DNA of 64,000 nucleotides, taken from positions 20,998-84,997 of the forward strand of contig SHMW01000012.1 of NCBI GenBank assembly GCA_008080735.1, in the 5' to 3' direction. The stretch's first letter is position 1; each line of letters begins with the position of its first letter. This DNA is from Promethearchaeota archaeon (GTDB lineage Archaea; Asgardarchaeota; Lokiarchaeia; Sigyniarchaeales; SOKP01). Below the pieces are notes generated by a model. It did no database searches. It was not told where the DNA came from and saw only the letters and a program-made list of their open reading frames with translations. The position numbers were made by a program, and so were the translations under genes. Shown here in pieces: positions 19,656 to 57,042 of the stretch.

Positions 19656-21584
19656 CTATTCTATTGCTCTACTAATATATCTTAAGTGCCGATCTTTGAT
19701 ACCATAAAGAGAATAAACTAATCCATTAATTTTTTGTTGCCGTAAAGTCTGATTGGGCTTTTCCCGAGCAGGATTTAATAGAATTTGGATATTTTTACTT
19801 ATATCTTGGGCAATCGTTCTTTCAAATCTATTTTCGGCTATCTTGATAGGTAGGGATTTTATTTTTTCAATTAAAATACGCGGAAATAACTGCTTATACG
19901 ACCCAAACGACTTCAAAAAATAATAAGATAAAAGAGAGGAATTTATTAATCCAAGCAGATAAAAATTGTTAAATTCGGGCAGGGGGGACCTCAGAATCTT
20001 TAGATTATAGAAGCTTTGAGAGCATAAGGAGATATTAGGATCGTAGGCGGCACAAATAAGTCCATCTTGGCTAATTTGACGTATAATAATCCTCGCTTTA
20101 TAATTATCAAGATTTTTATACTGGATTCCTTTTTTTGTGATATTTATATTGGAATATTCGGTAATTCTATAACGTTTCATCGAATAAATATAGGGCAAAT
20201 ATTCAGATTTTTGTGCAGGTTTTGGAATCGAGTCTAAAATAATGCTCTCGATTGAATCGTCGCTAAATTTGGAACCGCAATCACTACAGACGGGTTTCTT
20301 AGTAGGTATTGGATAATATTTGTCGCAATTTCGACAATAAAAGATCTTTCCTTCCTTCGTAAGCTCAACTCCTCTATTTAACATTATCTCAAAATCTTCT
20401 TTTGAGTTAAGGATTTCAAGAGAAGCAAAATTAGAATTTAAATAGTCTATAATCTCAATATCCTTCTGATTTAAATTGATTAGGTATCGATAATTCCATT
20501 TTTGTAATTGGCTCTGGGGCAAAATATTAGTTTTTTCCCCCGCATCATTATGGAAATTAACCTCAATGGAATTGTTTTGTCTATTCTTCGAATTTTCTTC
20601 TCTTCTAAGAATTAGGATAAGATTTGAAACTATGCTATTTTCAAATTGGGAGCCAACAATATGAATCTTTTTGATTTCCGAAGTGTGGTAGATAAATTTC
20701 CTAATTACATGTCTGTTTGAAAGAGCTAATAATGAATCTGGAATAATATAACCCAATTTTCCACCATCTCGTAAATATTTGATCCCTAGTTCTAAAAAAA
20801 TTTGGTAATAATCATATTGTCCTGTGTTGGTCTCGAAATTATTAGACTGAATAATGTTTTTATGCTTTTGCGGAATATCTCTAATAAATAGGTAAGGAGG
20901 ATTTCCAACTACATACTCAAATTTCCTTGGAATTTCAACAAAATAATTATCAGTTATTAATCTGAGACTATTCAAGTTATAAACTTTAAATTGTGGGGGT
21001 GTGAAATCATTCAAATATGTTAACATCTGCCTATATAACTCAAATAATTGTAAATGGAAATTTATTTGGGCTAAAATACAGGCGGTGGGATTTATATCAA
21101 TTCCATAAATATTTTCTTTTATATCTTGAATAATCAGTTTTGTCTCTTCCAAACTTAACTCTGAAATTGCTTTTTTGTTGAAACGTTTCATATAAAAAGC
21201 GATTTTTCTTTGTATTGCAGTTATTAGAAAACTTCCTGAACCGCAACTTAGGTCTATTATTTTTTGATTTTCTATATTACTGTTCGGATGGAATCCACAC
21301 TCATCTAAAATAAATTCGACAAGTTTTTGAGGGGTATAGATTTCACCTTGCTTTTTTCTTTTAGAATACGAAACTTCTTTCTTGTAGATTATCCCAATAT
21401 CGTGAGGCTCATCATCTATGACTAATTTGGTTTCAGATGAATATAGATACTCTATAATTCTTTCAATGAGCGGGATATTTGCTTGATAATCCTTTATATT
21501 GGAGGATTTTCGATAATTTCGAATGATTTTAGGGATAATATCTTCCTCACATAAGTAAATAATTGCTTCGCGTATATTCATCAT
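19656..21584 (-). CDS. N6-adenine DNA methyltransferase (TaqI/Eco57I-like, gamma class)
   Basis: GEIYTP, DLSCGSGSFL, GIDIN, VGNPPY, TaqI-C-like tail LLGLINS. Confidence 0.92.
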   Translation of the reverse strand: MMNIREAIIYLCEEDIIPKIIRNYRKSSNIKDYQANIPLIERIIEYLYSSETKLVIDDEPHDIGIIYKKEVSYSKRKKQGEIYTPQKLVEFILDECGFHPNSNIENQKIIDLSCGSGSFLITAIQRKIAFYMKRFNKKAISELSLEETKLIIQDIKENIYGIDINPTACILAQINFHLQLFELYRQMLTYLNDFTPPQFKVYNLNSLRLITDNYFVEIPRKFEYVVGNPPYLFIRDIPQKHKNIIQSNNFETNTGQYDYYQIFLELGIKYLRDGGKLGYIIPDSLLALSNRHVIRKFIYHTSEIKKIHIVGSQFENSIVSNLILILRREENSKNRQNNSIEVNFHNDAGEKTNILPQSQLQKWNYRYLINLNQKDIEIIDYLNSNFASLEILNSKEDFEIMLNRGVELTKEGKIFYCRNCDKYYPIPTKKPVCSDCGSKFSDDSIESIILDSIPKPAQKSEYLPYIYSMKRYRITEYSNINITKKGIQYKNLDNYKARIIIRQISQDGLICAAYDPNISLCSQSFYNLKILRSPLPEFNNFYLLGLINSSLLSYYFLKSFGSYKQLFPRILIEKIKSLPIKIAENRFERTIAQDISKNIQILLNPAREKPNQTLRQQKINGLVYSLYGIKDRHLRYISRAIE

Positions 21585-54618: not shown

Positions 54619-55045
54619 TCTAACTATTTCGAGTTAATAATTTCCATAGATTTACATTATTTTTATTCAATGGAATTTTTAATCGACTGTCTCCTTTTCA
54701 TGAGAGAGTAACTCATTAATTTTCCTTTCGAGCATAGGTATTTTGGTTTTTAATACTTCCCAAACAATATCATAATCCACATTAAAATATAATGTTAAGA
54801 TCTCCCAAATAATCCTTAATCAATGCTTCTACATTTTTATTGCAATTAATTTCACGAAATTTGTTCATTTTTATTTTAGTTTCTTTCAAGATTTCAATAT
54901 TAATTATTGGTATTTTTCTATTAAAAGATAAATCTCTCTCACTATTATTATTTAATCAACCTAAAATATTGAATAGAGTATAAAAAATTGTGATTCTATA
55001 AAACATATAAATCAATTTTTTTTGAGATGCTTCATTTAAAAAAAT

Positions 55046-55924
55046 GTGGGAAATATGGTCAAATCTGTTGAAGCCATTAAGGAAATACAAGAAAAATTTT
55101 CAATCATCGGAAGAGAAGATGAATTAAAAAAGATTATTCTGGCACATTCTATCGGCAAAAATATCTTGATTGAGGGTGAAGTTGGTGTTGGTAAGACCAC
55201 GCTTGCGCGTGGAGTTGCGTCTTATTTTGATGCTGATTTTTACCGTATCGATTGTAGTGAAGATACGTTAACTCATAACCTCGTCGGCTATTGGGACCCT
55301 CCGTTAGTAATTTCAAAGGGATATGTCGAGGATTCCTATCGATATGGACCTTTAGCTTCTGCCATGCTCGATGGAGGCTGTCTTTTTATCAATGAAATTA
55401 ATCGGATGCCAGAGATTACTCAAAATGCACTTCTGACTGCATTAGATGAGAAGATTTTGAAAATTCCGAAACTTAAAACCATTCATGCCTCGAAGGATTT
55501 CTTCACCATCGCGACCCTAAATCCATCAGCTCATATCGGAGTCACGGTTTTGGGAGAAGCTATAAAGGACAGATTCGTCTGGATTAAGTTGGATTATCAG
55601 AAACCTGAAGAAGAGCGACAAATCATTATTCAGGAAGCGGAATTAAATAGCGGAAATGCGGATGATTTGGCGATGCTGTCTCAAAGGATTATTCACCAAA
55701 CCCGAAATAATACCTCTATTCGCAGAGGCAGTTCCATTCGTGGTGGGATCGATTTAGCGGCGATCATGAATCAGCATGATGATATCAAGAGCTCTAAGAA
55801 CTGGGTTGAGGCGGCGATCATGGCGTTATATAATAAAATAGAGCTCGAGGATGGCATCTCACGGACTAAACCAGAGGTAATCTCTGAAATTGTTCTGGCA
55901 GTGCTAAACAATTCGGATTTTTAA
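55046..55924 (+). CDS. MoxR-family AAA+ ATPase
   Basis: GEVGVGKT, FINEINR, QNALL, ATLNP, DRF, SIRG. Confidence 0.92.
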   Translation: MGNMVKSVEAIKEIQEKFSIIGREDELKKIILAHSIGKNILIEGEVGVGKTTLARGVASYFDADFYRIDCSEDTLTHNLVGYWDPPLVISKGYVEDSYRYGPLASAMLDGGCLFINEINRMPEITQNALLTALDEKILKIPKLKTIHASKDFFTIATLNPSAHIGVTVLGEAIKDRFVWIKLDYQKPEEERQIIIQEAELNSGNADDLAMLSQRIIHQTRNNTSIRRGSSIRGGIDLAAIMNQHDDIKSSKNWVEAAIMALYNKIELEDGISRTKPEVISEIVLAVLNNSDF

Positions 55925-55967
55925 TAATCGATGATTTCTCTGAGGTCGACACCGAGGAGGAGGAGAA
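55915..55967 (+). other. candidate -1 programmed frameshift signal (G_GAU_UUU_UAA plus downstream structure)
   Basis: Slippery run at the MoxR stop; the -1 frame is open into the VWA gene. Confidence 0.55.
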
Positions 55968-55995
55968 GGCTAAGCGCTTACAAGTCAAAAAAACA

Positions 55996-57042
55996 ATGGT
56001 TCCAACCGATAAGGAGATTTTAAAATATGAAATAATCAAAAAAAAGAAGAAAAAACCCGATTATTACGAGCATATGGCCCACAGTCTTGATTACAAAGAA
56101 ATAAAAGATCTAACCTATTTAGCTATTGAACATAAAAACTTAGAAGCGATCCGCGGGATGCTTAAATCCAATGTATATGCCGCAACCGATGCATTAGACT
56201 GTCGGGAAGGTGTGGAATTTTTTTCAGAAAAAGCAGAAGAGGCGCCCGAGGTTATGCCTGAGATCTACTTTTTTATCCGGCGTCCTATTTCTGAAAAATA
56301 TAAACGGATTTTTCGCCGTTTAGCCCGACAGAGTATTCTTCGCACGTCCCTTAAAATCACAAGTCGGGGATTACGTGGATATAAAAAGAAAACAGTGCCA
56401 TATTACCATTTAGGAATGGCTGATTTCGATTTAGATGAAACCATACAGCACAATCCGCTAAAGATTCGTGAAAAAACGCTTAATTATCAAGATATTTACG
56501 GAATAAAGCGACAGAGAGAAAAAAGAAAAGTGGCTTTAGTGCTCGATACGAGCGGAAGTATGTATGGCAGACTTCTCCTTAATGCTGCTCTTACTACTTC
56601 TGTTCTTGCATACAATATGGAAAAAGAAGATTTCTCAATTATCCTATTTAATTCGACTGCAATGGTCTTGAAGGATATGAAAGAGGAAAAAGAAGTGGAG
56701 AAGATTGTCGATGAGATACTGGATTCAGAGGCAGTTGGGTTTACAAATATTCACATAGGCCTTGATAAAGGGCTCAAACAATTACAAAAAGTGAAGCGAA
56801 AAGCTAAAAATCAGTTCGGGATATTGATTTCGGACGGAAATTATAACAGAGGCGAAAATCCCATAAAGCTTGCCAGAAAATTTCCTAAACTCCACGTGAT
56901 TGGAATGCCCCCTGATAACGATGCGGATAGAGGAATTGAGATGTGTAAAGAGATCGCGAAAGCGGGAGGCGGAAAGTTCTATGCGGTTAATGATTTCAAA
57001 GAAATCCCTCGCGCTTTAATTGAACTTCTTTCTCAAACGTGA
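55996..57042 (+). CDS. VWA-domain protein (CoxE/ChlD-C-like); frame is open upstream to 55888
   Basis: MIDAS DTSGSM, TNI..GL, ISDG. Confidence 0.92.
   Translation: MVPTDKEILKYEIIKKKKKKPDYYEHMAHSLDYKEIKDLTYLAIEHKNLEAIRGMLKSNVYAATDALDCREGVEFFSEKAEEAPEVMPEIYFFIRRPISEKYKRIFRRLARQSILRTSLKITSRGLRGYKKKTVPYYHLGMADFDLDETIQHNPLKIREKTLNYQDIYGIKRQREKRKVALVLDTSGSMYGRLLLNAALTTSVLAYNMEKEDFSIILFNSTAMVLKDMKEEKEVEKIVDEILDSEAVGFTNIHIGLDKGLKQLQKVKRKAKNQFGILISDGNYNRGENPIKLARKFPKLHVIGMPPDNDADRGIEMCKEIAKAGGGKFYAVNDFKEIPRALIELLSQT

Follow-up and report, generated by a model that had tools for sequence, protein, structure and literature searches.

In the frameshifted chelatase gene chlD (fs-chlD; Antonov et al. 2013, as cited in PMC5009743 and PMC9227772) a single locus has two products, an AAA+ subunit and a longer form, made by shifting to the -1 frame close to where the AAA+ module ends, in which this module is continued by a linker and a VWA domain. 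The A_AAA_AAR site is followed by a 0-frame stop just past it and by a downstream structure, and the arrangement is also known from archaea (Methanocaldococcus). A 2021 review lists fucA1 of Saccharolobus solfataricus (site A_AAA_AAU, putative stem-loop) as the sole cellular gene of archaea with experimental proof of -1 programmed ribosomal frameshifting (PRF), and the chelatase gene chlD as an inferred case (PMC8211752). Here we analyze a locus of a Promethearchaeota archaeon (assembly GCA_008080735.1, contig SHMW01000012.1) at which a MoxR-type AAA+ ATPase open reading frame (ORF) is overlapped by a VWA ORF in the -1 frame. Coordinates refer to the window, which is the whole stretch of 64,000 nucleotides (positions 20,998 to 84,997 of the contig), and the features of the locus all lie on its forward strand.

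Compared with fs-chlD, the organization of the products is the same, whereas the site is U-rich (NNU_UUY) and the protein family is a different one. With fucA1 the locus shares the division of an archaeal cellular gene into a 0-frame and a -1-frame ORF, with a heptamer and a putative stem-loop. The fucA1 split, however, is found in few strains and has unsplit relatives, whereas the split described here is phylum-wide and its 0-frame product is itself a complete protein. In composition the locus also resembles the CbbQ-CbbO, NorQ-NorD, CoxD-CoxE and RavA-ViaA pairs, where the gene behind an AAA_3/AAA_5 ATPase encodes a VWA protein whose metal ion-dependent adhesion site (MIDAS) is intact. Those pairs are separate genes with their own starts, whereas the pair in the window would be joined by recoding.

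A first, sequence-only reading of the window had put forward a -1 programmed frameshift that makes a MoxR-VWA fusion. The comparative results lend it strong support: reading phase, shift site, coding signal and natural fusions make it likely, in our judgement, that the ATPase and VWA ORFs are one gene recoded through a programmed -1 frameshift. All sequence details of the junction were re-read in the window and are as first described. The ATPase ORF spans 55055-55924, with ATG 55055 as the more likely start and a GTG upstream at 55046, and its 3' end reads AAT TCG GAT TTT TAA (TCG onward is 55913-55924). Tandem 0-frame stops TAA TAA (55922-55927) mark the end of the ATPase-only product; most relatives have CAA or CAG in place of the first TAA, and the second TAA is the conserved stop. 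Relative to the ATPase, the VWA ORF lies in the -1 frame; it overlaps the ATPase by 34 nt and is open from 55888, directly behind a -1-frame TGA (55885-55887) that sets the 5' limit of the stretch in which a shift could occur. From 55921 to 57042 (stop codon 57040-57042) the -1-frame continuation would encode an acidic linker (LIIDDFSEVDTEEEE...), a CoxE-like N-terminal region and a VWA domain. Ahead of the annotated start, the first ATG of the VWA frame (55996-55998), which is not conserved, this frame encodes ...GF LIIDDFSEVDTEEEEKAKRLQVKKT; between 55888 and 55996 it contains no ATG, GTG or TTG codon. At the shift site the window differs from its closest relatives by one substitution (C to T) and no indel.

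The phase of the junction was compared in several sets of relatives. The order-level set comprises 35 loci, drawn from four families of the window's order, and the named set adds 79 loci from metagenome-assembled genomes (MAGs), these relatives being Promethearchaeota/Promethearchaeia (Lokiarchaeia) MAGs. Other sets hold three extra genomes of family f2 and 36 loci from 20 more Asgard families; 27 split loci from 14 of these further families, together with four Thermoproteota loci, were also scored for phase. After collapsing, the sample consists of 132 distinct junctions from 18 Asgard families and four Thermoproteota genomes. The genes are split and overlapping, and the VWA frame is -1 in each of the 132, despite indels in the linker, so that the phase conservation sought among orthologues is indeed present. 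Three loci with the VWA frame in +1 relative to the ATPase stop, without a nearby conserved start codon, were left out of this count (L162 and L163 of family f22, L164 of f21); the detection of ORF ends, a real +1 arrangement or broken genes may account for them. The combination of -1 phase and a conserved shift site with a run of U goes far beyond chance.

The proposed shift site is G_GAU_UUU at 55915-55921, with GAU (55916-55918) as P-site and UUU (55919-55921) as A-site codon. The statement of the earlier reading that this heptamer serves as a viral -1 slippery site is borne out by RNA2 of pea enation mosaic virus (PEMV), where the site reads G_GAU_UUU_UGG_UAG and the stop codon 3 nt downstream is itself required (PMC5009743). 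Not just the heptamer is identical: the viral stop lies exactly one codon past the site, as it does in 101 of the 132 junctions. The PEMV signal differs in being viral and eukaryotic and in using a long-distance RNA interaction, and in the window the stop is directly adjacent (UUU UAA).

Alignment of the orthologous junctions reveals the conserved slippery motif that was looked for: a 0-frame NNU_UUY codon pair is found near the stop in 132/132, and 0-1 codon before it in 129/132 (stop directly after the pair in 28 junctions, one codon later in 101, farther away in 3). The most frequent heptamers are G_GAT_TTT (74), A_AAT_TTT (18), A_GAT_TTT (16) and T_TTT_TTC (7), followed by A_AAT_TTC (3) and G_GGT_TTT (2), with C_CCT_TTT, C_CAT_TTT and others also present. 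Canonical heptamers (A_AAU_UUU, U_UUU_UUC, G_GGU_UUU, C_CCU_UUU and A_AAU_UUC) thereby recur across many lineages. Eight different codons occupy the P site (GAT, AAT, CAT, CGT, GGT, CTT, CCT or TTT), and their wobble base is always U, in GC-rich lineages too, while the amino acid is free. Judged from these alignments, the invariant wobble U is a constraint at the nucleotide level of the kind imposed by a slippery site. The position of the shift is further confined in 74 junctions, where just 4-13 nt separate the opening of the -1 frame from the end of the shift codon and a shift upstream of the U-run is therefore excluded.

Fused relatives form another line of evidence. Natural single-ORF AAA+-VWA proteins of 600-720 aa, with 43-50% identity to the ATPase, exist in Bathyarchaeia, Njordarchaeales, Methylarchaceae and others, and in-frame fusions of approximately 590-730 aa also occur in the Asgard families f21 (L165) and f22 (L161, L166). 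The naturally fused versions that the earlier reading had suggested seeking among orthologues are thus available, and they align colinearly across the junction; several read DFF/NFF where the shift product reads DF-L/S or DFF. For the window the predicted junction peptide is ...VLNNSDF-LIIDDFSEVDTEEEEK, and for most family members ...DF-SIIDDFSE... Families f29 (L141, L168) and f20 (L160) have ordinary separate genes without the linker, with an ATG 10-13 nt after the stop. In terms of gene structure there are three architectures, of which the frameshift form is dominant in Asgard archaea (18 families). Some f29 and f22 genes retain a GTTTTTTCG run at the equivalent position. Family f2 includes complete single-contig genomes of 4.4 and 6.0 Mb.

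In Thermoproteota the family is present in 8 of the 251 sampled genomes. The four split loci examined (L173-L176 in genomes G446, G372, G324 and G407) are apparently close kin: they read GAA_AAT_TTT_TGA with the VWA frame in -1, and carry a GC-rich 8-bp hairpin, CCUCCCUC-UGGC-GAGGGAGG, approximately 7 nt downstream.

Under the proposed mechanism, most ribosomes would read the AAA+ frame and stop at TAA 55922, which results in a MoxR-type ATPase of approximately 289 aa. Some would slip back one base at G_GAU_UUU, whereby tRNA-Phe moves from UUU onto the overlapping UUU and tRNA-Asp, leaving GAU, pairs in part with GGA; A-site re-pairing in the window heptamer would be perfect and P-site re-pairing partial. 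The shifted ribosomes would then read the acidic linker into the CoxE-like VWA/MIDAS domain, yielding a fusion of approximately 660 aa. The adjacent 0-frame stop and structured RNA just downstream probably raise the rate of slipping. That ribosomes actually shift, how efficiently they would do so and for what purpose are matters that we infer from the sequences.

Directly 3' of the shift site lies a nearly invariant block, TAATCGATGATTTCTC (55925-55940). Across 83 distinct sequences of the window's family (f1) its positions are either invariant or conserved to at least 90%, and this extends to synonymous sites of the -1 frame: the third-position entropy is 0-0.33 in the block against 1-1.9 elsewhere. 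Two downstream GAG codons in f1 are likewise conserved at synonymous sites. The minimum-free-energy fold of the window contains a candidate stimulatory hairpin at 55935-55962 (UUUCUCU/GGAGGAG with an inner GGU/ACC stem). It matches a hairpin at 55936-55961 that the sequence-only reading had named as an alternative to its pseudoknot, though the energy is no better than that of shuffled sequences. For the pseudoknot itself, in which UCGAU (55928) pairs with GUCGA (55945), both motifs are present in the window; as a conserved element, however, the stem with its pseudoknot was rejected, since relatives vary in the partner region (alignment columns 33-41) and the pairing is specific to the window.

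Family f1 as a whole shows a bulged stem-loop (alignment columns 16-19/52-55 and 25-34/42-51) that begins 6 nt after UUU in most members. Pairing reaches 91% in it, whereas slid controls reach 29-58%, and five of its pairs show compensatory changes. Members of the window's own genus have a degenerate outer helix, which leaves the hairpin at 55935-55962. Folding energies in f1 are unremarkable (z = -0.16 for the window, -1.5 to -1.8 for relatives), RNAalifold yields a weak consensus for the family alignment (-2.55 kcal/mol), and energies of single sequences are mostly not significantly better than those of shuffles. As a putative stimulatory element, the hairpin at 55935-55962 has modest support. 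An Rfam scan of 55700-56200 returned just a chance match to a long non-coding RNA (E = 0.32).

Outside f1 the downstream elements take other forms. A short helix flanking GA...GAUGA covaries in family f2 (GC 10, UA 3, CG 1) and is 79% paired against 24-46%. In most other families a hairpin follows the shift codon, its first paired base being 0-11 nt (mostly 2-10) away and z reaching -3.7. A kink-turn consists of a C-helix, a 3-nt bulge and tandem sheared G.A/A.G pairs; its signature, taken as GA-[stem of at least 4 bp]-loop-[stem]-RAU-GA, was found in 22 of 45 junctions outside f1 compared to 9 of 900 shuffles; the f17/f14-type kink-turn-like element reads GA-[GGGAAUUC...GAAUUCCC]-GAU-GA. Family f1 can be drawn as a box C/D-like kink-turn as well, UCGAUGA ... 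AAGA-GAUU (UCGAUGA...AAGAGAUU), which is 91% paired with zero covariation and would explain the invariant 'bulge' GAUGA. In the window this drawing is weak, as the C-helix has just 2 bp.

Several observations weigh against recoding. Related genomes are non-independent samples. The window heptamer G_GAU_UUU is not a canonical X_XXY_YYZ site, and the window hairpin at 55935-55962 begins 13 nt after the site, against the 5-9 nt expected of a stimulatory structure, and is no stabler than shuffled sequences (z = -0.16). The remaining points concern initiation, i.e. the possibility that the two ORFs are separate genes and that VWA translation starts by termination-reinitiation at AUA 55924-55926 or from a start not far downstream, for example ATG 55996, which the window does possess. 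In 76 of the 132 junctions the -1 codon that overlaps the stop reads ATA, and in eight it reads TTG (7) or GTG (1), so coupled re-initiation could operate in these; in L173-L176 this codon is TTG, which makes TTGA-type coupling an alternative for that group. Ordinary separate genes moreover exist in f29 and f20, as described above. In the 48 other junctions, however, the overlapping codon is TTA (22), GTA (16) or CTA (10), and it is this change by lineage that speaks against initiation at the ATA overlapping the stop. Independent initiation at ATG 55996 is disfavoured as well, given that 60 of 83 family members have Glu in its alignment column and that among relatives the first canonical VWA-frame start is found anywhere between +17 and +323 nt past the ATPase stop. 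Across the alignments no initiation codon is conserved in the VWA frame, the overlapping ATA included. Codon-position entropy shows a third-position variability far above that of first and second positions from the linker onward, upstream of most starts, so that the -1-frame continuation is a long ORF without a conserved start which evolves as coding sequence. The window has no Shine-Dalgarno-like sequence ahead of the junction; the 3' end of 16S rRNA can be paired by eye with the conserved block (SD-like GAUGAU) with one mismatch and no suitably placed start codon. Separate initiation would also leave the invariant wobble U, the canonical heptamers, the strict -1 phase and the downstream hairpins unexplained, and we regard it as unlikely.

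It is also conceivable that a one-base deletion once split an ancestral AAA+-VWA gene and that its halves now act as two proteins without recoding. The in-frame fusions of other lineages fit this scenario, as does the fact that gene callers annotate VWA ORFs of 293-367 aa. A neutral break, however, would not retain a shift-prone heptamer at synonymous sites, a stop 0-1 codon downstream, the coding signature of the linker upstream of all starts or the structured element, and all four persist in 18 Asgard families and Thermoproteota; we find an ancient broken fusion very improbable. That the two products arise through slippage of transcription on the T-run, or through a translational hop that takes off at GAU 55916 and lands at GAU 55930 or 55933, is in our view barely plausible. 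A T-run is present, yet it is just 4-5 U long in most lineages, and efficient slippage of RNA polymerase needs a run of about 8-9 or more bases. For a hop, the family of the window offers matched take-off and landing codons, since GAU_UU recurs in the -1 frame 17 nt farther on; other families lack the repeated GAU and nonetheless keep NNU_UUY and the -1 phase.

A further 0-frame ORF at 55931-56023, with its ATG 6 nt past the ATPase stop and 30 Arg-rich codons (MISLRSTPRRRRR...), was considered as a gene of its own. It is probably not one, because its length and sequence vary among relatives when these are read by eye.

Protein comparisons place both halves of the conceptual product, whose architecture of AAA+ module, acidic linker and VWA domain with MIDAS is that of ChlD/BchD. 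The window ATPase matches Pfam AAA_3 with 70 bits (cut-off 27) and AAA_5 with 69.8 bits (cut-off 22). Its Walker A motif is GEVGVGKT (55175-55198), and its Walker B motif, in the region 55370-55400, reads LFINEINR with Asn in place of the usual Mg-binding Asp of AAA+ proteins. All 35 order-level orthologues and the natural fusions share this hhFINE(I/L)NR variant, and at the sequence level FINE(I/L)NR marks the family. The closest solved structures are MoxR (2r44), NorQ and CbbQ. Midasin was rejected as closest relative: its top PDB match of 115 bits is a sum over six AAA modules, and the best single module reaches 36 bits against 56 bits for MoxR 2r44. The VWA protein of the window matches Pfam VWA with 40.4 bits (cut-off 23.8) and VWA_2, and falls just under the cut-off for VWA_CoxE (25.0 against 26.4). 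Its MIDAS motif is intact (DTSGS, 56545-56559), and the MIDAS residues D220, S222, S224, T286 and D316 are invariant. The best NCBIfam matches, GvpN and MadB, are both under cut-off and thus give no subfamily assignment. In public databases the orthologous VWA ORFs are annotated with 293 to 367 aa; they are named 'VWA domain-containing protein' or 'Mg-chelatase subunit ChlD', and the ATPase or the fusions are sometimes called 'gas vesicle protein GvpN'. None of the names listed in the protein-database searches mentions a frameshift, and our literature searches found no published description of frameshifting for MoxR, VWA, Asgard or Lokiarchaeota.

The likeness to chlD that the earlier reading had drawn holds for the logic of the device, but the window gene is an analogue of chlD and not a homologue. 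The window proteins score 21 and 28 bits against TIGR02442 (cut-off 779, within the range of 500-780 for NCBIfam chelatase models), the window locus has no TIGR02031 match, and neither a CobN nor a ChlH partner is present there. In the same genome, contig C54 (L036, L117) carries CobN (1270 aa) followed by an unsplit ChlD-like gene of 658 aa (TIGR02031, 440 bits), and a second ChlD-like gene of 741 aa lies on contig C101. The true chelatase subunits of this organism are therefore encoded elsewhere and are not frameshifted.

Upstream of the AAA+ gene lie the molybdenum cofactor (Moco) genes moaA, moaE, two moeA and mog, and downstream of the VWA gene an SBBP-repeat protein gene and an archaeal Nre gene. 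The gap between moeA and the AAA+ gene (54619-55045) is 430 nt long, very AT-rich and without ORFs of at least 60 aa. A TATA-like ATATAAAT is found approximately 40 nt before the AAA+ start, which suggests that the AAA+ gene is a separate, possibly leaderless transcription unit. Among family loci, moeA is upstream in 25 of 80 and Nre downstream in 17 of 80; the one fused Thermoproteota locus inspected has unrelated neighbours, and no CO dehydrogenase genes were seen. Of the earlier comparison with CoxD/CoxE, the Moco genes in the window stand, whereas moeA accompanies the family in just those 25 loci, and the link to Moco or CoxD-CoxE is weak.

By analogy with ChlI/ChlD and CbbQ6:CbbO1, the shift would likely serve to fix the ratio of free ATPase to VWA-carrying subunits in the hexamer; each ATPase hexamer would, like those of ChlI/ChlD and CbbQ/CbbO, receive only a limited number of VWA adaptors through the fusion. 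A more far-reaching reading, which we consider possible but doubtful, is that the stimulator is a kink-turn bound by L7Ae. It would be the first natural protein-dependent -1 signal of archaea, in what would be their most widely conserved cellular frameshift. If true, this would tie the ATPase:fusion ratio to free L7Ae, and hence to the assembly state of ribosomes or small ribonucleoproteins (sRNPs), and the cassette would be older than the split between Asgard archaea and Thermoproteota or would have spread between both groups.

If the frameshift itself is real, the cassette would be the second and a much broader archaeal cellular -1 case, covering 18 Asgard families among the closest prokaryotic relatives of eukaryotes, with a breadth of conservation unusual for archaea. 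Hundreds of 'VWA domain-containing protein' ORFs with arbitrary starts (293-367 aa) would then have their annotation corrected. Overall, the comparison suggests that setting the ratio of AAA+ ATPase to VWA adaptor by recoding is a recurrent solution, found in chelatases and in this MoxR-like family.

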